Source: Neolecta irregularis DAH-3 (Eukaryota). Taken from it: a DNA stretch of 49,144 bases. Shown in pieces: positions 1,039-48,905 of the stretch. A program made the translations under genes and the position numbers. The DNA is taken from positions 1-49,144 of the forward strand of contig LXFE01000904.1 in assembly GCA_001929475.1 (NCBI GenBank). The letters run 5' to 3'. Numbering within the stretch: the first letter of the stretch is position 1; the number at the start of each line of letters is the position of its first letter. The notes beneath the pieces were generated by a model, which saw nothing but the letters and a program-made list of their open reading frames with translations, ran no database searches and was not told the DNA's origin.

Positions 1039-4000
1039 TCAATGCAGAGAATAATTACTGTTATACAAACCGAATCTATCAAAAGAATATCCAAAGCACA
1101 CCATGTAAAGATGTCCCCACCAAAATCCCAAAACTGATCTAGCCCTGTTATCGTGAGCTCGATGAAGCATTTTTCGTCTGTGTTGATATAGGTGGAAGCC
1201 TGCGCTTCGATTCATGCCCAAAAGCTTGGAGTATAGTGTTGGGTAGACCACGACTTGAGTGTGTATTGATCAATTGAACGACGACAAGCCAGGTAGCAAA
1301 AATATTGACGAGGTAGTGAAGGAAATAAGTGTACATGACGCCATAAAGGGCGGCATAAATCGCAAGTAAGAGGAGAATTACACTTGTAATAATTCGAAAC
1401 CTGATGTTACTTCAATTTGGTGACACAAAAGATACCTATTATCCATTCGAGGTATTATATGGCCACTAACCATGGCTTCGATCATTAGAAGTATTGGTGC
1501 TACCGACAACACATTGTGATGAGATGAAAACGGCGTCAACCACTGGACAGCCAAATTTCGAACCCAGACTACGAGGATTGGAAGATTGATCGGAAGGAGA
1601 AATATCATCAAAATCAAAATGGATTGGGCGTAATTAAAGAAATCTACGCTTTTCTGAGGATAGCCCTATTATTATCAGCCATCCGAACGCGCGAGATACT
1701 TGTACCTGCTCTCTAACTTGTTGAAATGCTTTGACGCAAGTAATTAGTTGAACAAAAGAACCTATGATGTATGCGAACTGAAACGGCACGACGGTAGCAA
1801 CGAGGGCAAGTAATACTGTAGCCGTAATTATTCTTTTCCTAGCATTTTTACTTAGCGGAAACTGAGTCGGTGAGTTAGATCTTCGAAACCATTAGAACCA
1901 ATTAAGAGAGTTGAAACTTGCCTATCACTAATTTTCTGCCATTTTTTAGAATTATACAGTGTCACACTATATAGTAGACTGGCGAGGAAAATCGTCAGGG
2001 AAGTGCAGTAATAAATAATGGCCGAGACTCCAATTGACAGGAGTAAAAAGAGTGGAGCAAGGAACCAGAAAAATGGCTCACGCAGACCGAGCAGAATATC
2101 ATTGCTCATCCAGAGATGATAAAGAATATCGGCAAAACTTTCAGGGGCCGGGGTAATTTCAAATGCAGTTGGCGGAAACTGAGCACCGCTATCTCGGAAT
2201 AAAATCAAAAGGAGAGAACCAAGTGAAGTCCAGGTAAGTAGCTGACGTAGATCTTCGGCGATAACAAGAGCCAACCCTTCTTTAAAGTTCATGAATGGAT
2301 CTATAAATCAGCATATTGAGACAGTGGCGGCATACGGCCAATATCATACGCGTGAAATTGTTTGCGTAAAGTGAGCGATACAATGATAAATGGAAATGCG
2401 ACAAAGGCAACACGATATCGCATGACTAGTTTGCCTATACTTCCAAAAGGATCAAAACGAAGGGAAACAGTTATAGGCGAATGGCAAGTTGGATCGGACC
2501 AAACCTGCAACGAAAGAGCTTTCGTGATATCGTGTTCCTGAATAGGCTCTAGAAATGGAGATCCGCTGTGTATATTGATATCTGCCTCTCCGACGTTTAC
2601 GTGAAACTTGGTTTCATGAGGATCAGAAATGTACTGACGAACAAGAGGAGGGAGGAGCTCATGATTTCCTGTACTAGTGAATATAAAATTAAACGCTCAA
2701 AAAGGCATACCGCACCGACCACCTAAAACTTTCAATTTATATGCCAAAAGACTACTCTTCACTGCTGGAAGACGAATATCATGAGTGATTGCACGACCAT
2801 GTCCCAACGTCATCTCCGCTCCGTTGGAAAGCAAGGCTAGAATATTAGCATGAGCAGAAAGAAGAAACAACAAATCAAAGTCGAATTAATAAAAGTAACA
2901 GCTTTTGCTTTCTCAAAAAATTCCGCAAGGACAAATCGGGATTTCTGCTGCGTTGATCGGTCAATGATGGCGACATATTGGTAAGCGGTCACCATATCAA
3001 GCAGGAAACTGAGATAATTAAAAGGACTTTCAGAATATGGGCTCTTGTGGTCCGTTGTCGAAGCCGGTATGTAGATAACATCAGAAGAAGCATCCTTGCA
3101 TGCAAGTGGGGCAGTATCGTCCTTTGTAGAACCTTTTAATAAGATAGGCAATGGGGACCGAGAACCATCAAAAGGAAGAACAGTACAGAACATGACATGG
3201 ATCCCATTCATATTGCCGCTCTGCACAATGTGCTCATTCGTAAGAAGCTGAAATTCGCCAGTTCCGTGCAATGAGCCAATTGGTGGAACAGGCATCAAAT
3301 GAATCTTCCCGATTGATGAAGTAAAGGGATGTAGAACCAAACGCTGATTTAGGGTAAGAACTTCGTGAGAATATTCTTCGAGACTCAATTCGACTGGGCC
3401 TTTGACTTTTACAGTCAACTCCAAGAGCATCTCTCAAGGAAATACCTGAATGAAGGAATCTTCGTTCGCTGTTCTCTTCCAGACCAGTCAAATACCACCT
3501 TCTAAATATAGACATCCGATCTGCCCGAGGTTTTGTCTGACCCGCACGTCTGACGTCGACGATTTCCAGCAATGAGCTTGCTACTACTTTTCGGAATTGA
3601 TCACACCACATGATAGCTTGGTGGTCCATTCCGGTCCAAACTTTTGGAATGGAGGAAGTAAATACGGTGAATCCATGTGTAGCAGGCACTAGTCGGGATA
3701 CGCTTGCGTGATCGGAACTGACGACCGTATCCAATCCACCTCCGGCAATAGATATTAATGTCACATGCCACAAAGGATTATTATTAGCCCATTTGGCTGC
3801 ATGGGATTTTCTCCAGTATTCGTTTATATGCTGATATATGCGTTGGATTTCCCAGTCAAACGGAGCTGGAGGCAACGAATGGGGTGTCGACATAGTGATA
3901 ATTGTATTTATCGTATTTGCTTGATAGTTTGGCATCGTAAGCAACGCTCGTGCAACAAGTCCCCCCATGGAATGGCCAATAACAATGACTGAACTTGGGT

Positions 4001-19821: not shown

Positions 19822-22800
19822 ATGAACGTCGGAGAGCTTCTTCAAAACACACTTTCTACCAGTACGTGCATTTTCATGCAGGAGATGGAATATTTCCACT
19901 CCTCTTGAATCCCCGGTAGGATTTTTTCGCTGATACTCTTGTAGATGCAAAACTTCGACAAGATGCCGTTGAAGCCCTGGAATTGGCTTACACAAATCAT
20001 TTTGTACGCCCTTTTTAAAGTCTCCTACTGGGGTTCTAATACTTTATATAGCCGGCTTATGTAGCTATGCTTTCTCAAGAACTAGCAAGCGAGAATTCCC
20101 CGTCTCATATTCGAAACGCTGCTGGATTGGCTCTAAAAAACACTCTAACCGCAAAGGTGAGTCAATCAAGCGCAAACCTCGCCTCATAATCCAGGAAGCT
20201 GTAAGAAGGGAAGAATATCACCACAAATGGATTATGTTAGAGGATAATACGAAGCAGCAAATCAAACAAAGCGTAGTTCCTCTATGAAAGTGTACGATTA
20301 ATCAGTAGGCACTACAAACGCTCAACTCGCACGATCAAAAGGCAGGTCAGTCTGCTGCTCAGTATATTGCAGCTATCTCTGCAATCGAAGTCCCTCGAAA
20401 TGAATGGCCAGAACTAATGCCTCAACTTGTTCAAAACGTTTCTGAGGGTCAGGAGTGGCACTTGAAACACGCTTCATTGCAAGCCATTGGTTATATATGC
20501 GAGAGTGTGGTATGTTTCCTTATTTAGGATATTTTATTGAGATAATAGGATCAAGAATATCTTGCGACTCAAGCCAACGCAATTCTTACCGCGGTCGTCT
20601 CTGGAGCTCGCAAGGAGGAATCAAACGCTAATGTTCGACATGCCGCTATTATGGCTCTGTTCGATTCGCTAGAGTTTGTCCGAGAGAACTTTGAACGCGA
20701 GGGGGAACGAAACTATATTATGCAAGTAGTCTGCGAGGCAACCCAAGCAGAGGATAATCGAATTCAAGTAGCTTCCTTTGGCTGTCTTGTCCGAATTATG
20801 CAACTTTACTACGATAAAATGCGTTTTTATATGGAAAAGGCCTTGTTTGGCCTGACGGTTTTGGGAATGAAACATGACGATGAGAATGTTGCGCTCCAAG
20901 CTGTTGAATTCTGGAGTACTGTCTGTGAAGAGGAAATTGAGATCTCATTGGTGATTCAAGAGGTTTGGCATAATCCTTTTTCGAGACTTATCAAACAGGC
21001 AGCCGAGGTAGAAGAGCAGACTGAGACGGAATGTTTCCATTTTGCCAAAGTAGCTCTTCCTGAAGTTCTTCCTGTTCTTTTGCAACTACTTTGCCGTCAA
21101 GAAGATGATGCCGAGGAAGATGAATGGAATGTATCAATGGCCGCTGGAACCTGTATTCAGCTTTTCGCCCAGTGCGTTGAAGGGGCGATTGTTCCTCCCG
21201 TACTTGGATTTATCGAAGGAAATATCCGGAGTGATGATTGGAAGAGGCGAGAGGCTGGAGTCATGGCCTTTGGATCTATTTTAGAAGGACCAGAGCCAAC
21301 ATTGTTGGAACCACTTGTTCAGCAAGCTCTTCCGGTTCTTATTGGTATGATGTCGGACCAGCATATTCAGGTTAAAGATACTACTGCTTGGACGCTGGGT
21401 CGTATTTCGGATCTTGTCATTTCAGCTATTTCGCCTGAAGCTCATCTGCCGAGTCTCATTCAGGCTCTGCTAGCGGGCCTTAATGATAATGCACGGATCA
21501 TCTCAAATTGCTGTTGGGTATGCCTTTTGTAAAGAATGACGGCCGATTTGGTAGGCTTTGATGAATCTGGCAGAGCAAATTGGAGGAGATGGACTCGAAA
21601 ACCAAACATCATTGATGTCCCCATACTATGAGTCTGTCATCTCTGCCTTGATGCGTATTACTGAAAGGAAAGTTACACAGCTTTGAAACATCTAACACAT
21701 TGCAGCGCCGCAAATGAGAACAATTCCCGGACATCTGCATATGAAGCCTTATCGACCCTGGTGTCGCAGGCTGCCATTGATGTCTTACCTATGATTGCCG
21801 AGTTGAATAAGCTAGTTCTTGATAGACTTGAGCGTACAATCGCCATTCAAAGTCAAATTGTAGGACAAGATGAACGAAACAATCATATCGAGCTTCAGTC
21901 CAACCTTTGCAGTCTCTTGACTGTATATTCTCTTTCACCGTAGAGTCTCACCTTTGCTAGAATATCATCAGAAGACTGGCGTCTGAGATCCGTCCTGTGT
22001 CTGACCGAATCATGTCTATCCTTCTCCAGCTACTGGGATCTGCGTCCAAGCAGTCTATTGTTTTTGAAGATGTCTTCCTCTGTGTTGGTGCTCTCACATC
22101 AGGCACAATCTTTCTTATTGTATATGCTGACTAGACAGCTTTGGAAGTCAACTTTGGAATCTATTTGGACCCATTTGCTCCCTACTTGTATAATGCACTT
22201 CAGAACCAGGAAGAACATCAACTATGCTCGATAGCTGTTGGGCTGATTGGCGATATATCTCGAGCTCTTGGAGAACGTTGCATGCCATATTGCGATAAAT
22301 TCATGCAACATCTCGTCGAGAATCTCCAGGCAGGTCATCTTGGCAAGTCCTACTCTGATTTGAGCAGAGCTCTGTCGTGCACCGAAACGTTAAACCGGCA
22401 ATCTTGTCATGTTTTGGCGATATTGCGCTTGCTATTGGACCAGGTTTTGAGAAATATCTTGATGGTGTGATGCAATTCCTCCAGCAAGCCTCTTCGGTTA
22501 CTGCTGCACCAGATAATGCTTATGATATGGTTGAATATCTCAATCAACTTCGGGAAGGCATCGTCGAAGCTTATGTCGGCATCGTCCAGGCTTTGAAAAC
22601 TGGTGGTAAATGTATAAAATTATTTATTTGTAATCTTCGCTAACCGATAGCCGAACTCCTGCTGCCTTATGTTCAGCATATTTTTGGCTTCCTCGCAATG
22701 ATCAACAGCGAACCAGAAAAGACCGAGACACTTATCCGCGGCGTAGTTGGTCTCTTAGGGTACCTTACATAATGTATGAAACGAAAACTAACTTTTTCCA

Positions 22801-22961
22801 GCGATCTTGCTGAAGCCTTCCCAGACAAAAAGCTTCGGCAGCTTTTCCTCTCTGACTGGATCAATGAGTGTCTAAGAGTCGGGCGCCAGAAGAATGGTTT
22901 ATCACAGCAGACAAAAGAAGTTGCACGATGGGCAAGAGAGCAGATTAAACGGGCCATCTAG
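19822..22961 (+). CDS. KAP95: Importin beta-1 (karyopherin beta), about 13 exons
   Basis: [88 protein letters not shown]. Confidence 0.97.
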
Positions 22962-23898: not shown

Positions 23899-26293
23899 CT
23901 AGTCCAAAGCAACTGGTTTCTGTCCCCATCTAGTTTTGAAAACTACGAGTGGTTTTCCTTGTTGTTCCTTTTCATGTTGTTCTCTCCATTCTCGGCCTTT
24001 TTGAGCGAGAGCTCTAAGTTCCTGGATAAAGCGATCTTGGATCTCGTTGGGAGTTTCATCTTTTTCGGAAATGGTGTAGGATTCTAGACGACGTTGGAGC
24101 ATGGCGATATATTCGTTCATGGGATGTTTCATTTCAGAGTATTGAACTTCGACTTGCCAGTCGTCTTTTGAAGTCGGCATTGGACTGCCCTCTACGAGGG
24201 TTTCGTTAACAAAGGAATCTGTTTCGACGACGAGACCAAATACTTTATCGCAAGTTGAAAGATGGTCCTTGTCGATTTCGGGGGAAACGTCGCGTATCGT
24301 GACATGCTTTGCACCATTTGATTTCTCAGGTTCTGTTGGTTTACTGGGTTCCTTAGACTTGGAATCTTCATCATCATGGCCAGTGAGTTCGAGTTCATGC
24401 AGTTTTTCTTCAATCTTTTCAACGGCTTCGGGTTTAACGATGCCCTGAGCCGATTCAAGGACTGCTCTTACTGCGCCGGCTTGATGCTCGTTGATTCGTG
24501 TTTCAGACATGGCTTCGACGATAACATACATCCGGTTCCTCAATCCGGGGTCTGTGTCAAACATCATTCTCATAGACTTGTAGCGTTAGCTTTGTGCGGG
24601 TCACCTGCAACATACTTGGTTTGGAAACCGTTTTGTTGCTTTTTGCAAAATGTCCTCTAGGATAGTGATACTGAGTTTGAATTCGCGGTTTCCGATTCCG
24701 TGTTCATGGCTTCCATGAATAGCACAATCCATTTCTTCCAAGCTGATATACTGGAATCCAAAGATACGATTGGTATTGTGAAAGGCAACAAAAATCCCGT
24801 CCATATTTCCTATTCGGACTTGGAGAGAATATTTCAAGAAAGCAGATCGAATAAGATCGTAGTATTCCCGTTCAAATGATTCGTATTCGCCGTAATTGCC
24901 ACGGATTTCGTAGCCGGACCCGTGTTCTTCAGCATTTGCAATATCCATTCGAACAGCGATAACCGCGCGTGTTTTTAAATCAAAGATACCGCTTCCAGGC
25001 AATCTGGGGTCATAGCAATCGAGTTGAGAACGCATGAGTATATCTCCGCATGTCGAAAAGTGGTAAACTTCCCTTTCGTTTCTCTCGGAAGGGGTGAGAG
25101 TATGGGAATTTGTTTTTCGGTATTTTTCAAGGACCGAGGGGGCTACGGTGAGCATTTTTTCCATTGAACGGCCCTAGGATATTATGACCAGACAAAAAGA
25201 CATAAATGTACGAGCCAAGAGAGGACGTTGTTATCGGTATCTAGACTTTTATCTGCATCTATCGAGTAGATGCCGTTGTTGCATCTCAGAAAGATGGAGG
25301 ACGGTGCTCGCTGCGCTCTTGTAAAAGTTTTCAGCATGCCGCCGTATTTACTAGACAACTTGGAGATCGACACGGACCTCCATGAGGAAAGGAGGAAATG
25401 AAAGTGCGAGAGAGTGGCAGTCATGCTCGATGTCGATCCGACAAATGTGCAATTGTGTTGGCGAGCTAACGAATCGAGATTCTATAAAGAAGGAGATTAA
25501 CTACGATAGCGGGGAAAATATACTGTATCACGAGACGAAGTGATATATTCGAACAAGGCGTCATAGTCAAACTCTTTTTTGGGCATGATCTTTTCGATAT
25601 AGGGATCAAAATTGTATACGTTGGAGCGCGGGTCTCGCATGTACGTGACGCCAGGACTGCGAAGTGAATACAGGATTGGAGCAGACATACTTGAACAGGA
25701 CACGGTCAAGACCATGAGCAAGACCTGCAACCTTTTTTTGTCCAGGCAATATGACTTCTGCACAAGATCAGCTCGAGATCAACAGCAATGCAACCTTTTA
25801 TATGGATATTCTCCGGTTTGAGCGAGAGCGTCTGTACTGTAACAGACCCGTCGATTGTGACATTGAGCGGTTCAGGTGCGGTGGTGTAGCCGGAGCGAGG
25901 AAGAAATTGTATCTTAAAGTTTCCATCTAAGGGCTTTCGTAGACGCCATTTCAGCACACGGGCAGAGAGCGTCTCGTCTGTAGACCGCAAAAATTCTTTG
26001 CTGGTAGTAGCCTTCATTTTGGAGGTTTGTTTTGCAGTGTCAAACACTGGAGCGGGGTTGCTATTATAGTTGCTACCGTCACCCTGGTCCATCTGCTTTT
26101 GGTGGTTTGCTTTCAGGATCGCCGTCGCTGCCTGGGTCGCCATACTTCCTATCTTCGATGTCGCAATACAGCCCTTTGCTTTTTCCTTCAGGCTCAGAAT
26201 CCTGTCCTTGCAGCCCACCATCTGGCTCTTTGCCCTGCAGTATTTCTGCTGGCGGATTGCCGCGACTGACTGGCGGCAGTGCATAAACTGCAT
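23899..26293 (-). CDS. PET127: Mitochondrial RNA 5'-3' exonuclease Pet127, multi-exon (start codon uncertain)
   Basis: LAHGLDRVLFNPGV, DPRSNVYNFDP, GSTSSMT, MRSQLDCYDPRLPGSGIFDLKTRAV, FLKYSLQVRIGNMDGIFVAFHN. Confidence 0.95.
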
Positions 26294-26600
26294 GAGAACA
26301 ACGAAAAAAAAAGCGAATAGAGGTGCGATTAGCGGCAGTCCTGAAATGGTCACGTGAGCGTCATGTGCAGGGATGCGTCAGTGGCGCACGCGCCGTCTCC
26401 CGCCTAACAAACAACGCTAGAACTGCGACCGCGGTTGTCCCCTGAACATGGGCCTCGTCAAAAGGCGGGCCCTGCCCTGGAAAGCGCATATACTCCACCG
26501 CATATACTCGACTGCATAAAACTCTCGCCTTTCCCAGTTTTCGTCTCACCACCATCCTCATCCTGCCATCCCGGTTCTACCGCCTTTAGTCTCCTCTGCT

Positions 26601-27974
26601 ATGGACGGCTGTCTGCTTTTTGCTCCGCCCGCAGACTCGGGCCTGCTCAAGCTGTCAAAGCTTACCGCCAAGTTCAAGCGCCGGTACATTGGTGGGCACA
26701 GGCAGAAAAAGCCGGCATGCTGATGCTGCAGTCATTGCATCCGCGGCAGACGGTTACGTGCTGTCCGTGTACAAAACCAGACCCAGGGGCGGTAAGCCAG
26801 ATCCCATCCATATATTCAGCATGCTTCGGTTTGCCGCTGCGTACATCACCGACGACAAGCCCCCGACGCTGATAGTTGCGGGCCGAGACTGTCCGCCTGC
26901 CGCGACGCCTACCGCCAGCTCCAACCCAACCAATGTCCTGCGCCTCGCCAGATCGTCGCGGCTGCCCTCCAGCAACAGCAGCGCCCCCGTGCTCATGTTT
27001 AGAAACGACCCCGATCTGCCCAACCAGCTCGACTCGTGGCAGCGCTTCATCACAAACGTCCTTCGGGTACGCCCATGCAAGTATCACGGCCTTACCGTGT
27101 CTAGTTTGAACTGACTCCTTCCCCGGCGGCCGCTGTGCCAATAGTAGCGCCTCCTGTGCAGCCCCAGGCCGGCGCCGTCGATGTCGCGCTCTCCCGCCTC
27201 GGGCCTTCCGTCGCGCATCTGTCAATGTCGTCGTCGTCGCCGTCCACCTACTCGTCGTTTGATGGCCACACCATCCGCCCGGTGCGCAGCAACCGCGGAT
27301 GGGACGCGCAGAGCGCATCGACCACGGCCAGCTCGCACCTGTGCGCGCTTTCAGCCGCAGAGGATGCCGGGCTCGACTCGCGGGCCGTGTCGCCGGTCGC
27401 CGCAGACAGAGCAGATCAAAGCCACCTGTCGATTCTCGACCGCGCCCTCCGCCAGCGCCACGGCCAGCTGCCAGGTGCATCGACCATCAGCGGCGTGCTG
27501 GACAGGCACGCATCGATGCCGCCAGACAGTTTTGCCGCCCAGCAGCGCTACCGCCCGTTCCCCCGCCGCAACACCTCCGCCTCAACTACAGTCTCCTCCA
27601 TCCACGGCAAACGCGAACCAGGCCTGCCAAAAGCAGCGGCAACCACCACCACCAGAGAGATCGCCGGCCACAAGAGTCCTGCTCCTCCGTCTCCGGCAGA
27701 AATTCGCGACATCCGGCGGAGCAGCATCATTAGTTTCATTAATCCCACAACCGTCGGAGGTACGGACAGTAACAGAAACAGCCTTAACGATTCAAGGCCA
27801 TCGACGTCGTCAAACGATACAGAAAATCTTTTGCTAGCTCTCAAAAACCGTTATTTATTCTCTGAGCGAGACCCAGAAGATTCCATCTCCATACGAAGAC
27901 GCAGCGTTCAATATGCCCCCGTCGGCAAACGGTTCAGTATCTCTAGCCTTGCAAGTATCGAAGGCAAATGCTGA
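26601..27974 (+). CDS. Uncharacterised protein with PH-like N-terminal domain and Ser/Pro-rich tail, 3 exons
   Basis: ATG 26601 plus two short GT-AG introns give MDGCLL...KFKRRYIVI...LSVYK...LMFR...LDSWQRFI, a PH-fold pattern; GC-rich. Confidence 0.6.
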
Positions 27975-28233
27975 GCAGTTGGAGCCTTTCTTTTTGTAAT
28001 GTCAAGTATTCTTTGCGCGCATTGTTAGTTATCTTCATCTTTTAGTAGGTTTCTTGGGAAGGTTATTCTGTCTTTTGTTCCTCTTTCTTTGGCTTTCAAG
28101 GAGTTGGGGCACATTTCTACTGTAATAAGTAGTCGAGATACTGAATCACCACATGTATTGCATTTATATTATTGCCCGATCGTGAATTCTTTCTCCATGT
28201 TGTATCTATTGCTCCTCCCTATGTATTGCACAT

Positions 28234-31200
28234 CTATTGCTCAACCCACTTCCCATGAACCCGCTTCTGCCGAATCTTGCAAGGTGCAAGCTCCCATCCC
28301 TTGCCTACACCATATCTCGGCACAACCATACACTCCCGTGACATCCCATCCGAGGAAACCACAGGTCGAGGATACTCTAGCGGTTTCGAGTATGTTATCA
28401 ACGGCGTGGACTTTGCAAGAATCGTGAGATGTTGCGCAGATATCGGCGTCAGTGGTTTAATGTAAACTCTATCTGATCCTCCCGACGACCTAACCAGTTC
28501 CTGGTAAATAATATAATCAGGAACCGCCTGGCGCGTTGTCTTGCAATTTATCACCGACGAAGAATGAACAATTGCGAGACAGTTCTCGAGACAAGTCTCA
28601 AGCTGACCAGACCGTGCAACAACAACGTAAATAATACCCTTTTTAAATCCTTTTGCGAATTCTTTAATCGACTCTGAGGGTACTAAATCTGCCCGGACCG
28701 CAGCTTGGTCACTAAATCCGGCTGCCACAATTTGTCTAATTGCTTTAATCTGGACCGATTTTGGTAAACTTGGTTTCTTCTCATAGGTTCCGTTTCGACC
28801 GAGGGCCACCGGTGAATTTGACAAGACAATTTCAGTCAATTGTTTACGTAGCTTATCAATTTCTTCCATCGCCTGACATATTACTTGAAGAATACCAGAG
28901 AAAATACGTACCTTAGGACGAAGAAAGAATTTCTCACAAAATTCTTGTTTATCCTGGCTATAAATAAACGCACAAATCACCGATAACAATTTCAAGACAT
29001 CAGACATGGGATCTAATTTCATAAACTGCTGCTGAGCCACGAAAAATTCCTTCCGTCGTCGCTTTCGTTGTTCCTTTTTACAAAGTTGTTCATTAGTAAG
29101 AACCTGCTTTTCGTCTTCCACATCTAAAGGTTCTGCGAGACTAAACTCTTCAAGAAATGGAGAGCCAACAGAAAGACCAGCAACGATTGAAATCACATAG
29201 GGCAGACATCCGTGTTGACCGCCAATTGTAAGCATCTTTGCAAACCGAGGAGAGAGCGGGAACGCAGCCATACTTTGACCCAGTTCAGTTATCCTCCCAT
29301 CAGAATCTAGAGCTCCAAGACATGATAAAAGCTAAACATTTAGCCAGGAATCAAGGGATTACAAAAAATACCTCTTCCGCTTCCCGAAGATGACGTGATT
29401 CGGGAGGTGTAGGAAAAGGAAATTTGACAACTTGGTCGATATTCATATTCTTCATCTGCAACACAGTGCCCTCAATTGGTGCACGATTAATTTCAGCCAT
29501 AGTGAATTCATTGAAATCTCTTTCGTATACCGCAGATGAATACAATCGATAGCAATGACCAGGACCGGTACGGCCCGCTCGACCAGATCTCTGTTCTGCG
29601 CTAGCTCTACTGATCCATTTAACATCATAGCTTTGAACTCCAGTATCTCGATTGTATGATTTCTCCTTGACTTTGCCCGAGTCTACAACGTATCGAATAC
29701 CTGGAATTGTGATACTTGTTTCGGCCACGTTGGTTGCTACTACGCATAATCGATGATCTGTTGGTGGTGCCTGAAAGACCTTAAGCTGCTCGGATGTTGG
29801 TAGAAGAGAGTACAGCGGAAGAAGGTGGAGCGGTTGCGATGTACAGCCCAACATCTCATCAGAGCTAGACTCTTCAAACTCTTCAGCCTCTGAATTTTCT
29901 TCATCTTGGATATCGTTACCGAAATCCACGTCTTCTGCTTCAAGCGTTACTTCACGGCCTGAAAGTCTAACTTTTGGAGTATACTCAGACGATGATGTTT
30001 TACAAAAGGATTTCTTCAGCTTGGAACAAAGTTGTCTAATCTCGCCTTGACCAGTAAGGAAAACAAGAATTCCTAAACATCAACCGCCAGAGTAAAGATT
30101 TTTGTATACCGCCTGGAGGTAACTTGTTGTGAATTTTGCATACTTTTTTATAGACATCATCAACATATTTAAGAGAAGTTCGCTTTGCAAAATGTGTCGT
30201 AACAGGAAATTGACGTGCATCGATTTTGATGACAGGAGGAGAAACACCAAACAATGTTTTATTTTCCACAAAATCAGACACTCGTAAAGTTGCAGACATA
30301 ATAATGAGTTTCAAAGGCTTGAAAAGGTTAATACGAGGTTTTATTTTTGAAAGAATACCCTTGTCGTAGATCCTTCCTCTTGACTCATTTCTGCTCGAAC
30401 TTTTAGTACTCTGCTCAAGATGCCAATCAAAATATCAGTATTAATGCTCCGCTCATGTGCCTCATCTACAATAACGACAGAATACCTTGTCAATAAAAAG
30501 TCGGTAGCCAATTCACGCAATAAAACACCGTCAGTCATAAATTTGATCGCAGTCTCGGGTTGACATGCTGAATCGAACCGAATTTGATATCCAACACGAT
30601 CAGCCGCATCCCCCATCTCGGTTTTTAAACGGGATGCCATACTGACAGCAGCCACTCTTCGAGGCTGGGTTATTCCAATCATACCAGGATTATCGGTACC
30701 CAAGGATCCGTAGCCGGCTTCGTAAAGGAATTGTGGTACTTGAGTAGTCTTCCCGCTGCCTGTCTGCCCACATAATACCACACAAGGATTATGATTAATA
30801 ACTTCCATTATTCTTTGTTCCTCAGATACAACAGGCAACAACATTCGTGATTCTTCTATTTCTTGCGTACGGGTAACGGTAACATGAGTAGTTTTAATTA
30901 CAGTCGACGGGTTTAGAGAAACGGAAATTTCTTCTGGGGTTTCTGAACGGTCTCTTGGTCTTGATGATGTAGCTTTCGATACAATTTCCAGCGGTAATTC
31001 CAATAATTGTACAGGCGCCGAGGTTTCCACCGTCCTTTCAATAGCCCAAGCTTTAAATCGATCTCCTCGGGCTCTCAAATCTTGCCGAGTATCTTCATCC
31101 ATAGTATTTTCACTCTCGGGCTCTGATGAATGTTTTGATTCTTGGTCTGATTCTTGGTCTGATGCTGGGTCAAAAGAAGAAATATTCGATTCTGGTGTTT

Positions 31201-38655: not shown

Positions 38656-41600
38656 ATGGCCGCCCGTGGAATCGCACCGTCGCTGTTTTTGTATTCGCTC
38701 ACCCTTTTACCGCCTTCAGCAGCAGTTCAAGCAGTCGTTGGCCAATTTTCCGGGTTAAAACATCAGGAAATCATCGTTGCTCGAGGTTCTTGTCTCGTAA
38801 TTCTGCGTCCGGATACAGCACTCGGAAAAGTCGTTTCAGTTCTATCTCACAATACATTCGGCATTATCAGATCACTCGCGGCATTCAAACTCACCGGATC
38901 CTCAAAAGGCATTTTCCCTCTATTTTTCTGTTCTAACCCAAAGACTTTCTCATCGTCGGCTCAGACTCGGGAAAAATTGTCATTCTCGAATATAAACCAG
39001 ACACAAATATCCTCGTCAAAGTTCATGAGGAAACATTTGGCAAATCTGGCGTTAGACGAGTCGTACCCGGCCAGTACTTTGCTTGCGATCCCAAAGGCCG
39101 TTCAGTCATGATCACCTCGATAGAAAAGAACAAGCTTGTATATGTATTGAACCGAGATGCCGCCGCCAATCTTACTATCAGCTCTCCTCTCGAAGCGCAC
39201 AAATCACATTCAGTTGTTTTTCACATCATCGGATTAGACGTGGGCTACGAAAATCCTATATTTGCAGCTCTCGAGGTGGATTATAGCGAAGTTGACCAAG
39301 ATCCTACCGGAAAAGCCTATCGAGACTTGAAAAAGGTACAAAACCACACCTTCACTATTAACCTCCAGACCCTCACCTACTACGAACTCGATCTCGGTCT
39401 GAACCACGTTGTAAAAAAATGGTCAGATGTTGTTGATAGGAATGCAAACATGCTACTCCAGGTTCCTGGCGGATCAGACGGACCATCGGGCGTTCTGGTG
39501 TGTACTGAAGATTTTATCGTCTATCGACACCAGAACAAAGGCTCTTTTAGGATACCAATACCTCGCAGATTCGGTGTCTATGAAGATCTAGACAAAAAAC
39601 AAATCATCGTCTGCGCAGTCATGCACAAAATGAGAGTATGCATCACTGAAATAGAATAAAATAAACTCACTCAATAGGGTGCTTTCTTCCTCCTCGTCCA
39701 AAATGAATACGGGGATCTCTTCAAAATAACCATCGATTATGACGACAACGGCGTCGAAGCAGTCAAAATCAAGTATTTCGATACCGTACCCGTAGCTACC
39801 AGTCTGTGCATCTTGAAATCAGGATTTCTTTATGTTTCTGCAGAAACAGGAAACCATATGCTTTATCAATTTGAAAAACTCGGAGACGATGACGACGAAA
39901 TCGAGTTTTCTAGTGCAGATTTCGATGAAGAAACCAAACCATACTTTAAACCACGGCCATTAGAGAATCTTCTCGCTGTAGACGAAACAGAAAGCATGAA
40001 TCCCATCATCGATGCAAAGGCATACAAATAACCCTTGATCACAAACCTAATCTTTAGGTTCTTAATCTAACCAACGAAGATGCTCCACAAATCTATGCCC
40101 TTTGTGGTAAAGGACATCGCTCGACATTCAGAATTCTAAGACATGGTCTTGATGTAAACGAACTTGTCGCCTCAGAACTTCCAGGTGTACCTACAGCCGT
40201 CTGGACCACAAAAATCCGCAAATCAGATGAATTCGACTCATACATCATTCTCTCATTCACCAATGGAACATTGATTTTATCCATTGGAGAGACAGTGGAA
40301 GAAGTAACAGATACCGGGTTTCTCTCATCAACGCCTACAATTGCAGTCCAGCAACTCGGCCAAGATGCACTTATTCAGATCCATCCAGGCGGCATCCGGT
40401 ATATCCGCGCAGACGGAAAAATCGTCGACTGGAAAGCTCCAGCTCAAAAAACTATCCAACAAGCTACCACGAATCAAAGACAAGTCGCGATCGCATTGAG
40501 TAGTGGAGAATTAGTGTACTTTGAATTGGACAGCGGAGAATTACAAGAATATCGGGAACGGAAACAGATGACTGGTGCCATCACTGCATTGAGCATTGGC
40601 GAAGTCCCAGAAGGAAGAGCAAGGAATAACTTTATGGTTTGTTGATCCGAGAACGATGTTGATTTTCAGGCTGTTGCGTGTGATGATAGTACTGTTCGAA
40701 TCATTTCTCTAGATCCGTCGAGTACTCTTGATTCTCTTGGCGTACAAGCTCTCAGTGCACCTGCAAGCTCACTCGTAATCATGGCGATGGTCGACGGAAG
40801 TGCAGAACGTGCTGTTAACAATATATATCTTCATATCGGTCTACAAAACGGGGTTTATCTTCGAACACTAGTCGATAGTGTTACTGCTCAACTAACCGAT
40901 ACGCGTCTTCGCTTCCTTGGATCAAAACCTATTCAGCTGTTCAAAGTCAAGGCACAAGGACAAGCTGCCGTTCTGGCGTTATCGTCACGGCCATGGCTAG
41001 GCTACAATTTAAACTCCTCTCTGAAGTTGACGCCTTTATCGTATGACCCGCTTGAATATGGATGGAGTTTCTCAAGCGAACAATGCCCAGAAGGCATGGT
41101 TGGTATTCAAGGCCAGTCATTAAGGTAGTGATACTTTGGAATGGACACTGACTCTAGAATCTTCACGGTCGAAAAATTAAGCGATAATCTTAAACAAGAT
41201 ACAATTTCCCTTTCACATACGCCACGAAGAATGGTCCAGCATCCTCACCAACCTATTTTTTACATTGTCGAATCAGACAATAAGACAATTTCACAATCAG
41301 TGAAAACCCGTCTTCTCGCCTCTAAACAAAACGGAGAAGCATTTGATCTTGCGCCAAAGGACTTTGGTTGGCCACAAGGCGGACCTGGGAGATGGGCATC
41401 GTGTATTCGAATTTTGGATCCTTTACTAAAACAAACTGTCTTGCAAGTCAACTTGGAGGAAGACGAAGCTGCCTTTTCAATCACTGTAACAACATTTAAA
41501 ACTCACGGTGACGATCTTTTCCTTGTTTTTGGAACTGCAAGTAAAGCTATTCTTGCTCCAAAGAGTTTTGCAGCCGCCCATCTTCACGTTTACAGACTGG

Positions 41601-42553
41601 CCCCCGATGGACGACAAATTGAATTTCTGCACAAGGTATTTTTTCTCATTAGACAATTGAATTTCTGACAAGGAGACTGAAGTGGACGATTTACCGACAG
41701 CTCTACTTCCCTTCCAAGGCCGACTTCTCGTGGGAGTAGGTCCATCCCTTCGAATCTATGATATTGGGCAAAAACGACTTTTACGGAAATGTGAACTTCG
41801 AGGTCCATTAACTTCGGTAGTCTCACTTCATACCCAAGGAAATCGAATCGTTATTGGCGACGTTGCAGATTCTGTTCATTTTGCAGTATACAAATACGCT
41901 GAAAACCGACTCGTGATTGTCGCGGATGATGAGGTTAGTCGATATACTTCAGCAACAGCAATGGTTGACTACGAAACTATCGCTGGAGGCGACAAATTTG
42001 GTAATTTCTGGCTTGTAAGATGTCCAGAACAAGCAACTAAAGAAGCCGATGAAGATCCAACGGCATCCCACCTCGTCAATGAGAAGCCATTTTTACACGG
42101 TGCACCATATCGGTTGAAGTCGCTTGCATCCTATTTCATAGGCGATATACCTACTTCAATGACTAAGACCTCCCTTGTTCCTGGTGGTCGAGAAATATTG
42201 TTGTATACAGGATTATCCGGATCAATCGGTATTTTTGTGCCATTTGTCAGTAAAGAAGACGTTGACTTTTTTCAACAATTGGAGATTCACATGAAGAGTG
42301 AGGAGCCTCCTCTTGCTGGTCGAGATCATCTTGCTTATCGAGGGTATTACAATCCTGTAAAAGGTTGTATCGACGGAGACTTGTGCGAGGTATCTGTCTT
42401 GTTTCTTTTCTACTACAGTTTTTCTAATTTTACAAGCGATATGGATTGTTGCCTCATGATAAGCAGCGGTTGATTGCAGGTGAACTCGACCGTACAGTTC
42501 AAGAAGTACAAAAGAAAATTGAAGATATGAGAGTTCGTGGTGTTGCATTTTAA
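38656..42553 (+). CDS. RSE1: U2 snRNP SF3b subunit Rse1/SF3B3, multi-exon
   Basis: [87 protein letters not shown]. Confidence 0.97.
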
Positions 42554-45354: not shown

Positions 45355-48300
45355 ATGGCCTCATCTCAAACGAAGAACATCGTAGTTCTGCCTGGCGATG
45401 GGTATTCTTGTCGTTAAATAGAGAAATTAAACTCAATATGCTAGTGTCGGTCCTGAAGTCATTGCTGAAGCACTCAAAGTTCTCAAAACTATTGAGCGAG
45501 TTCGACCAAACGTTTCCTTTAATGTCAATACTTTTATGATCGGAGGCGAAGCGATTGTATATGTTGTTCATACCATTGGCTCACTGGCGATAGGATGCGA
45601 CTGGATCGCCGCTACCTGATGATACTTTGAAAGCTGCCAAAGCTGCAGATGCAATTCTTCTCGGTGCAGTTGGCGGTCCAAAATGGGGGACCGGACCAAT
45701 CAGACCCGAACAAGGCCTTCTCAGGATTCGCAAAGAATTGGATGTATTTTCAAACATCAGACCATGCAATTTTGCCAGTGAAAGTTTGTTGGACTTTAGC
45801 CCTCTAAGGGAAGAAGTCGCCAAGGGCACAGACTTTACTGTCGTTCGAGAACTCGTTGGCGGTATTTATTTTGGAGAAAAGATTGAAGATGATGGATCGG
45901 GACATGGTATTATCTTCTACATAACATTACACTGAAGTGGTAGCCCGTGATATGATGCCATATAGCAAAGCAGAGATTGAGCGAATCACCCGAGTCGCAG
46001 CATTCCTTGCGATGAAGCAAAATCCACCTGCACGAATCCATTCTCTTGATAAAGGTATGATATCAGCTAACCACATTAAAATAATCTTTGTACAGCAAAT
46101 GTACTTGCCACCTCTCGATTGTGGAGAAAGACGGTCACCCAAGTCTTGTCAAAAGAATTTCCTCAAGTTAAGTTTGATCACCTCTTGATCGATAGCGCAG
46201 CTATGTTGGTCATCAAGAATCCCCGTGCATTGAACGGAATCATTCTCACTGAGAACATGTTTGGGGATATCATCAGTGACGAGGCCAGCGTCATTCCAGG
46301 CTCATTGGGACTTTTACCATCAGCTTCCTTGTCTGGAATCCCAGACGGAAAGAGTCGAACTAACGGAATTTACGAGCCTATTCATGGAAGCGCGCCTGAT
46401 ATCGCAGGAAAAGGAATCGTTAATCCTGTGGCTGCTATTTTGTCAGTTGCCATGATGTTACGATATTCTCTTGGACTTGCAAATGAGGCTCAAGCTATCG
46501 AAGATGCTGTTCGTAAAACCATCGATTCTCAAGAACTCTGCGGAGAAGGCATTCGCACAAAAGATATTGGTGGACAGTCGTCGACAAGTGAAGTCGGAAA
46601 TACAATCTGTACTGTCCTCGAAACATATCTTGAAGGTCTCAACTCGGCTGAGCGAGTTGACATAAAAGTACCCAGGGAGTTGACATCATCTCGACCGGCT
46701 GGGCGAAGACCGATGACTATCACAGAAAAGATTATAGCCCATGCTGCGATCAATCTCCCGCCGCCAGGAAATGTCAAACCGGGTGATATGGTCTGTGTGC
46801 ATGTTGACTGGACGTTGGCCTCTGAACTCACTTGGAAGGGGATGGAAAAGACTTACGACCAAATGAAACGGCCAAAGATCCACAGAAATGACAGATTTTG
46901 GCTTGCAATCGATCATACTGTTGATCCACGAACCTATCATCTTCCGAAAACTAAGAGTCTTGTTGAAGCTTCACTGAGCTTTTCCAAAGAAGCGAAACTA
47001 GTAGACTATCTTAGGCCGAATACCTCTATCCTTCACACGGAATTTTACCGCCAAAGAGCGCAACCTGGCCAAGTTATCATTGGAGCCGATTCGCATTCTT
47101 GCTCTGCTGGAGGTCTCGGAGCCTTTGCTGTAGGTCTCGGAGCAGCTGATGTGGTTATGCCTCTCGTCACTGGAGAAACTTGGTTTAGCGTCCCAGAGAC
47201 TTGCGAAATCAAGTTTATTGGAGAACCTCCTTTTGGAATTGGTGGTAAAGATACCATTCTCTACGTCCTTGGAGAGCTAAAACGAAACACTGTTGCTTTT
47301 GAACGGTCGGTAGAGTTTACTGGACCCGGATTAAAACATTTATCTTGCGATGCTCGATTTGCCATTGCGAATATGTCGACTGAATTCGGAGGTATCGCTG
47401 GTGTCGTGGAAGCAGATGAAATTACCGCAGCTTACATTTCTAAACGAACGAATCTAGCACACAAAAACAACGCGATATATTTTAGAGCAGATCCTGATGC
47501 CGAATACGCTGTGTCTTACACTATCGATCTCTCGAATGTTGAGAGTTTGGTCGCAGTCTATCCTAGCCCCGACAATGTTGTTTCCGTCGATGAAGCAGCT
47601 GATACTCCTCTTGATGGCTGCTTTATCGGAGCTTGTACAACTGCCGAAGAAGATCTAATTCTTGGAGCATTAGTTCTTGAAGCTGGGCTAAAGAATGGAA
47701 TGGTACCCATCTCCACGGGCCAACGCAGAGTAACCCCGGGGTCTCTCCCTATCCTTGCGAAGCTTCGAAAACTAGGGCTTTTGGCGGTCTATGAACGGGC
47801 TGGATTTACAGTTGGTGCTCCTGGATGTAGTTACTGCCTTGGTATCGCGGCTGATATTGCCGGTGAAGGAGAGGTTTGGCTTTCCTCTCAAAATCGAAAT
47901 TTCAAGAATCGAATGGGTAAAGGAAGTATTGGAAATCTTGCTTCTGCCGCGACCGTTGCAGCTTCTTCGTTCAATATGAAAATTGCCAATCCGCGGGTCT
48001 TGTTGGACTCTATCGACCGGGCACGATACTCTAGAATTCGCGAGGCTTGGTCTGAGGGAAATTTGCCCAAGATCACTATTTCCGAACCGATGCCTACACC
48101 TGTCGAGAATGCAAAACTGGAGGACGTTGTCGACAGTATTCAAAAGGTTTCCGATGGAGAGACCAAGCAGAAGAGGGTTATCAGTGGAAAGGTGCAACGA
48201 TTTGAAGAAAATGTAGATACCGATGCTATTATTCCTGCGCCTTTTATGCCTGGCAAGGATGGTATGTCATTTGATGAATTTCAGGATTCAAGTTCTAGAT

Positions 48301-48905
48301 CAGGATCTGGGGACACATTGTTTTGAATATTACAGACCAGAGTTTCGCCAGCGGGTCAAGGATGGTGCAACTATTGTGTACGTCTTGTACAATGTTAGTA
48401 TTGACTAGAAAGCGTCGCTGGTAATGGATTTGGATCCGGATCCTCACGGGAAGAGGCTCCGCGAGCGCTCATGGGAATTGGAGTGCAGTGTGTCATCGCA
48501 CCAGGTTATGCATTCATTTACGGACGAAATCAACTCAATATGGGACTTCTTGGGATTATTATCAAGGACGAGGAGTTTTATGAACTTTCCAAGGAAGGCG
48601 CTGTTGTCAGCATCGATCAAGATAATCTTGTCGTTACCGTTCAAGGCTTCGACAAAAAGTTTACCTTCAAGTTAACGGACTTTGAGCAAAAGCTGATTTC
48701 TGTAAGCATTTGGTCATTCTCCCCATTTTTGATAATTTCTCAGGGCGGTGGAGTTACGGCACTCTATGACAAATTCGAGAACCAGTTGTTTAGAAGTCTC
48801 TTGAGACCTGATGATAGTCAAATACAAGGCGGCTGTGGAAATGAAGTTGAGACAAGCAAAAGTGGTGATGGGTGTGGAGATACAAAACAAACGCTCGCTT
48901 GGTAA
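45355..48905 (+). CDS. LEU2: Fusion of 3-isopropylmalate dehydrogenase (Leu2/LeuB) with aconitase-family Fe-S large domain and swivel domain (LeuC/LeuD-like), 8 exons
   Basis: IPMDH motifs [49 protein letters not shown]; then in the same exon [51 protein letters not shown]. Confidence 0.92.

Follow-up and report, generated by a model that had tools for sequence, protein, structure and literature searches.

GA-AG introns are known but rare, and the probable case described here, from Neolecta irregularis DAH-3, adds an ancient position in a conserved importin-beta gene. In humans, 14 of 222,263 introns are of this kind (cited in PMC5714493), and human GA sites are described as having a primary GT 4 nt downstream (PMC6280755). 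The GA-AG site of human FGFR1-3 reportedly requires a canonical site located 6 nt upstream and is linked with alternative splicing (PMC7072748). Among fungi, the census given for Ganoderma lingzhi lists 35 GA-AG introns (0.038%) versus 1706 GC-AG introns (1.85%) in a set of ~92,000 (PMC11590231), and the account of Fusarium graminearum places Sanger-confirmed GA-AG introns within the 0.31% of 'other' sites (PMC3577648). GA and GG donors make up ~10–12% of introns in the copepod Eurytemora affinis and in Oikopleura dioica, where they are described as mostly recent gains (PMC5714493; PMC7072748), and the GA donors of Eurytemora affinis have an obligate AG at the exon end and nearly always an A at +3 (PMC5714493). 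A literature search found no report on splice sites in Neolecta. At donor position +2, a C still wobble-pairs with U1 and is tolerated everywhere; an A cannot pair in this way. In model systems, A at +2 was reportedly called a 'dead-end' site in the title of a 2003 study by Brackenridge.

Neolecta irregularis is an early-diverging ascomycete. As described in the genome paper, the DAH-3 assembly was built with Velvet from Illumina TruSeq reads at 199-fold coverage, gene prediction relied on AUGUSTUS, SNAP, and GeneMark-ES, and fruiting bodies were the source of the sequenced RNA; the entry on introns in its supplement consists only of '4.3 introns per gene' (PMC5309816). The window analyzed here spans a whole contig of 49,144 nt, and all coordinates refer to it.

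Importin-beta gene model

An importin-beta (Kap95) gene was identified on the forward strand at 19822..22960, with an ATG at 19822, a TAG at 22958-22960, and 863 codons in 14 exons separated by 13 introns. Family membership is indicated by precomputed Pfam matches to PF03810, PF02985, and PF13513 (IBN_N and HEAT repeats). When the longest exon was used as a protein query, the search recovered the deposited protein of this gene (P0001, 'Importin subunit beta-1 [Neolecta irregularis DAH-3]', 856 aa) and a second sequence, P0002, an uninterrupted 863-aa open reading frame that originates from JGI and lies on a 2872-nt contig. P0002 is identical to the spliced product of the window at 851 of 863 residues (98.6%), and its residues 4-862 align with solved importin-beta structures (4xrk_A, E 3.9e-278; human 1qgk; yeast 2bku/3nd2). 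Spliced mapping of P0002 to the window yields introns that sum to 548 nt and a gene of 3139 nt with introns included. Since its own contig is shorter than this, P0002 is the product of a spliced transcript (mRNA), and it must come from a closely related Neolecta, either another individual or another species than DAH-3. A single N. irregularis Kap95 occurs among the best 120 protein matches. A protein search with the region around the intron 8 junction found no further Neolecta fragment across that junction among its 18 matches, all of which have ≤59% identity.

Introns were placed with a spliced aligner that allowed GA and GC donors at an extra penalty, using guide proteins from 98.6% down to ~70% identity. 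Four guides produced the identical set of 13 introns: P0002 and the proteins of Pneumocystis murina (P0003), Savitreella (P0013), and Protomyces (P0017). The exact intron boundary is fixed by the near-identical P0002, the distant guides alone being insufficient for this.

A probable GA-AG intron in codon 510

Intron 8 occupies 21668-21705 on the forward strand, with the sequence GAAAGTTACACAGCTTTGAAACATCTAACACATTGCAG. It has 38 nt, begins with GAAAGT, ends with GCAG, and interrupts codon 510 in phase 2 (AG/C, Ser), as read from the sequence and placed by all four guides. Exon 8 ends with ATG CGT ATT ACT GAA AG at 21667 and the next exon opens with C GCC GCA AAT GAG; with the 38 nt retained, the frame runs into a TGA. 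The 5' splice site AAG/GAAAGT (21665..21673) matches CAG/GTAAGT at seven of nine positions, with the A at +2 (21669) among the mismatches, and shares the top consensus score of the 21 tabulated donors with two others. A CTAAC branch-site motif lies at 21692..21696, with a distance of 10 nt from its branch A (21695) to the final base of the intron, and the AG of the 3' splice site (TTGCAG/C, 21704..21705) is the first AG past the branch site. The other registers that yield the same mRNA are GG..CA and AG..GC only, so GA-AG is the sensible reading.

The relative's transcript product contains MRITESAANENN, at the protein level the exact product of the GA-AG junction. P0002 also aligns without a gap to solved importin-beta at this junction. 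All four guides chose 21668-21705 whenever GA was allowed, and alignments restricted to GT scored 64–123 lower. The first-pass annotation, made from the DNA letters, had listed the same exon end, GAAAGT start, CTAAC, GCAG end, and length of 38 nt, and these bases are as it gave them. The 28-residue spliced product that it predicted is present as an exact string in P0002, and its favorable view of the donor (AAGT at +3..+6) and of the branch point agrees with the consensus match and the branch-site distance given above. A U12-type intron was considered and rejected; the motifs of that class, RTATCCTT at the donor and TCCTTAAC at the branch site, are both absent from the 38 nt. A-to-I editing was also rejected, as it would yield G, not U, at +2.

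The deposited importin-beta is wrong at three places, each arising from a non-GT donor. P0001 maps back to the window at 856 of 856 residues with 13 GT-AG introns and departs from the new model at exactly three introns. Its mis-annotation at intron 8 follows from the GA donor: a false GT-AG intron at 21632..21672 (forward strand) deletes 12 residues, and 21673-21705 is then read as 11 residues. The other two departures are at introns 10 and 11; at intron 11, P0001 reads through and then adds a false intron at 22444-22484. Comparative work that uses the N. irregularis proteome or its intron coordinates inherits these errors, an example being the intron gain/loss analysis in PMC7940399.

Conservation and ancestry of intron 8

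A metagenome scan with P0002 recovered 78 fungal Kap95 loci with 38–62% identity, 67 of which have at least one intron; the contig of P0002 was not among them. An intron in codon 510, phase 2 (P0002 numbering) is present in 37 of these 78 loci, and two further loci have an intron in codon 511, phase 2. Donors of the 37 shared introns are GT in 36 cases and GC in one, with no GA; this is the comparison with orthologous introns that the first-pass annotation had proposed. Nine of the 13 Neolecta Kap95 intron positions are common to 27–45 loci. Because the position of intron 8 is so widely shared and its donor is GT in all but one of the 37 loci that share it, intron 8 is to all appearances an ancient intron with a GA donor derived from GT.

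Protein conservation was assessed with 103 full-length orthologues, 16 of the 119 sequences fetched having been left out as lying outside 780–950 aa. The 32 residues around the junction align without a gap in 98 of the 103. A recurrent pattern, TE-xxx-NE-xN-xRT, is found near the junction, and its N-E is widely conserved.

Aligner controls

The same aligner settings were applied to 34 other fungal Kap95 loci and gave 382 introns, with no GA donors and seven GC donors (1.8%). The aligner does not invent GA donors. In a decoy control, in which one decoy donor dinucleotide was allowed at a time, decoys raised the score in the Kap95 gene almost only near 21668, 22103, and 22330, which are the sites without a good GT-AG intron. 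The exceptions were 20984-21019 (AG, with the Pneumocystis murina guide only) and 22112-22147 (TT). An ab initio gene finder given one decoy donor at a time had no discriminating power (GC 4, GA 4, others 1–6) and sidestepped the GA intron through a GT workaround.

Non-GT donors elsewhere in the window

Two other Kap95 introns on the forward strand are GC-AG, both placed by P0002 and the guides. Intron 10 (22103..22138; cag/GCACAA, branch CTGAC) has 36 nt and is in phase 1, and its position is common to 27 other loci, of which 26 have GT and one has GC. Intron 11 (22330..22367; cag/GCAGGT, branch CTGAT) has 38 nt and is in phase 0. A neighboring RSE1/SF3b3 gene, for a splicing factor, with eight introns was modeled at 38656-42553 (forward strand) with five guides at ~60% identity, all five of which support GC-AG introns at 38909..38943 (aag/GCATTT, branch CTAAC) and 40020..40057 (aag/GCATAC, branch CTAAT). 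For these introns, GC produced the largest score gain of 15 decoy dinucleotides. A homologue search found no close Neolecta relative of RSE1, and its junctions rest on the ~60% guides.

In a BST1/PGAP1 gene, seven introns were agreed between guides, all of them GT-AG. The part of this gene that encodes the membrane portion (1649-1957, reverse strand) has two introns on which the guides disagree, with GT, GC, or GA solutions, and the ab initio gene finder joined five of the decoy donors to the acceptor at 1851. One protein (P0259) was rejected as an independent guide for BST1/PGAP1; it is the best match but is the window's own GT-only model.

Across the three genes, the 28 resolved introns comprise 23 GT, four GC, and one GA donor. 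Non-GT donors thus number 5 of 28, versus 7 of 382 in other fungi with the same method, in a sample that is small and includes RSE1, a gene chosen on the strength of GC candidates noticed in it beforehand. Kap95 alone has 3 of 13 non-GT donors versus the same 7 of 382 (Fisher p = 0.003). All five non-GT donors are preceded by an exon-end AG, versus 6 of 16 GT donors (Fisher p = 0.035). The introns are very short and vary little in length, all but one of the 21 tabulated having 33–48 nt; branch motifs are of the CTRAY type and lie 6–12 nt from the 3' end, and donors are degenerate after GT (GTTTGG, GTAGTT, GTACCT). An Rfam search of the window gave no match, and so no snRNA gene.

We scanned the whole window for introns of 31–52 nt with an exon-end AG, a branch motif, and open, coding-like flanks. 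This yielded seven AG/GT, four AG/GC, and two AG/GA candidates, with zero to two for each of 13 other contexts. Three of the AG/GC candidates are verified and one has a GT three bases further in; the AG/GA candidates are intron 8 and one that is doubtful. Without the exon-AG condition, GT reached only about twice the background, and the scan had no discriminating power. At 30073-30112 (reverse strand), in a DEAH helicase (DHR1-like) gene, the scan flagged cag/GCGGTA as a GC donor. With the GT at 30109 as donor instead, the frame is unchanged and one codon is added, and this is probably an ordinary GT intron.

Other features of the window

A 748-aa frame at 46080-48323 (forward strand) contains the C-terminal half of PF00180 (to profile position 348 of 348), followed by ~70 residues and then PF00330. 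This combination of an isopropylmalate/isocitrate dehydrogenase domain and an aconitase-family domain in one frame may represent a LEU2-LEU1-type fusion gene. A block at 26001-28000 has 58% G+C, versus 40–49% in the rest of the contig, and long open reading frames on both strands of this block had no Pfam match.

Discussion

These results are best explained by intron 8 being a true spliceosomal intron of the U2 type, with a GA donor, that is removed from the message in DAH-3, and we consider this likely. That it arose from an ancient GT intron by replacement of T with A at +2 is part of the same explanation and is held to be probable. Use of a GA donor by the spliceosome had been proposed in the first-pass annotation, and this interpretation is supported by indirect but converging evidence from the relative's spliced product, the conserved position, the protein spacing, the strong splice signals, and the same-method control. 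Counting against GA splicing in DAH-3 are that the donor of P0002 itself may be GT, or the intron absent from its gene; that the genome authors sequenced RNA, yet deposited another model; that an in-frame GT-AG alternative (21672-21718) is available; and that GA donors are so rare in other genomes.

From general splicing knowledge, AAG/GAAAGU would pair with U1 snRNA at -2, -1, +1, and +3 to +6, which leaves +2 as the only unpaired donor position between -2 and +6. A consensus CUAAC branch site would act 10 nt from the end of the intron, with the first downstream AG as acceptor, and a length of 38 nt, which is standard in this genome, would allow the intron to be defined as a unit. Together, the U1 pairing, the branch site, and the short length could offset the A at +2, much as a strong context is described as making up for a non-U at this position in GA donors of other organisms. 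A message cut at 21667/21668 and joined to 21706 would then regain codon AG/C (Ser510) and a conserved stretch of 18 residues. An occasional cut at the GT register 4 nt downstream, giving a frameshifted message, is conceivable.

The GA donor would disappear if base 21669 were misassembled, or were a minor allele of pooled fruiting bodies, and the true donor were GT (or GC). Such an error would fit with the GT start of 36 of the 37 orthologous introns, and with the field-collected fruiting bodies and the Velvet assembly described for this genome (PMC5309816). Random base errors are nevertheless unlikely, given 199-fold Illumina coverage, at which substitution errors are assumed to be far rarer than the ~0.04% rate of GA-AG introns in one fungus, and given that four more non-GT donors occur in two genes of the same window. 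In all four the departure from GT is likewise at +2, which is not what errors would be expected to produce, and we regard a wrong base as improbable. A further rival is a decaying or non-functional Kap95 allele that has lost the ability to splice out intron 8, and a change at +2 is elsewhere a classic splice-killing mutation. Here, however, the frame is open in each of the 14 exons, the product matches an expressed orthologue at 98.6% identity and is of full length when aligned with solved structures, and no second N. irregularis Kap95 was seen among the best 120 matches. A null allele should also not persist in a haploid mycelium, and decay of this gene appears very improbable indeed.

It is also conceivable that the DAH-3 message is made with a canonical donor, either from GT 21672 to AG 21718 or as in the deposited 21632-21672 intron, both of which leave the frame open. 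The first-pass annotation had weighed the nearby GTs in combination with AG 21705, and both of its objections hold: GT 21672 leads to AAA/CGC CGC AAA TGA, a stop, and the nearest phase-matched GT upstream (21632) removes 12 codons, close to its figure of about 11 residues. It lacked the second AG at 21718, with which GT 21672 forms a 47-nt intron (GTTACA...ATGAG, 21672..21718, forward strand) that keeps the frame as ITERK/NNSRT with two residues fewer; aligner and gene finder chose this intron only under GT-only donors. With donors as degenerate after GT as GTTTGG and GTACCT in this window, GTTACA is possible. In human data, GA sites are placed 4 nt before a primary GT (PMC6280755); GAAAGT in Neolecta intron 8 has this same 4-nt arrangement of GA to GT, so both registers could be cut. 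The 21672-21718 intron would, however, pass over the first AG after the branch site, drop the conserved N-E, and shorten the stretch in which 98 of the 103 orthologues align without a gap, and its donor AAA/GTTACA matches the consensus at four of nine positions, versus seven of nine for AAG/GAAAGT. In the deposited model, 12 conserved residues are lost and intron sequence is read as coding. Neither canonical form is the one carried by the mRNA product of the relative, and alignments limited to GT score lower, so a canonical donor in DAH-3 has little probability.

Kap95 is regarded as essential from work on yeasts. With GA as the working donor, intron 8 would be a further exception of a documented type, in an essential and highly conserved gene. 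An excess of GC and GA donors in Neolecta, at which these genes hint, is a more interesting lead than the single GA intron. Neolecta could have relaxed the requirement for U at +2 genome-wide, with GC at ~5–20% of introns and GA at a few, always after an exon-end AG; we offer this tentatively, at somewhat less than an even chance. If true, hundreds of junctions would be mistaken in the published annotation of 5,546 genes, which is GT-AG only. Neolecta would then be the equivalent among fungi of Eurytemora and Oikopleura, and a natural system for how very short introns are defined. A non-GT excess that held genome-wide would also bear on the recognition of ultra-short introns under a weak donor signal.

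Several described systems come close to this intron. As in human FGFR1-3, a U2-type GA intron would be spliced, with a 5' splice site otherwise near consensus and a GT close by. Unlike in FGFR, the GT of Neolecta is 4 nt downstream, the GA junction must be constitutive and productive, and the intron is fungal and has 38 nt. The exon-end AG and the A at +3 are shared with Eurytemora and Oikopleura, as is the failure of GT-only automatic annotation at GA introns; in contrast to those animals, Neolecta has one GA among 28 resolved introns, at an ancient position, and its other non-GT donors are GC. Ganoderma lingzhi and Fusarium graminearum present the same rare exception in a fungus, with RNA evidence from the same strain, whereas the Neolecta case is argued from sequence comparison. 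GC-AG introns likewise differ from the consensus by a change at +2 only, offset by a strong context, but GA is ~50-fold rarer than GC in the Ganoderma lingzhi census.
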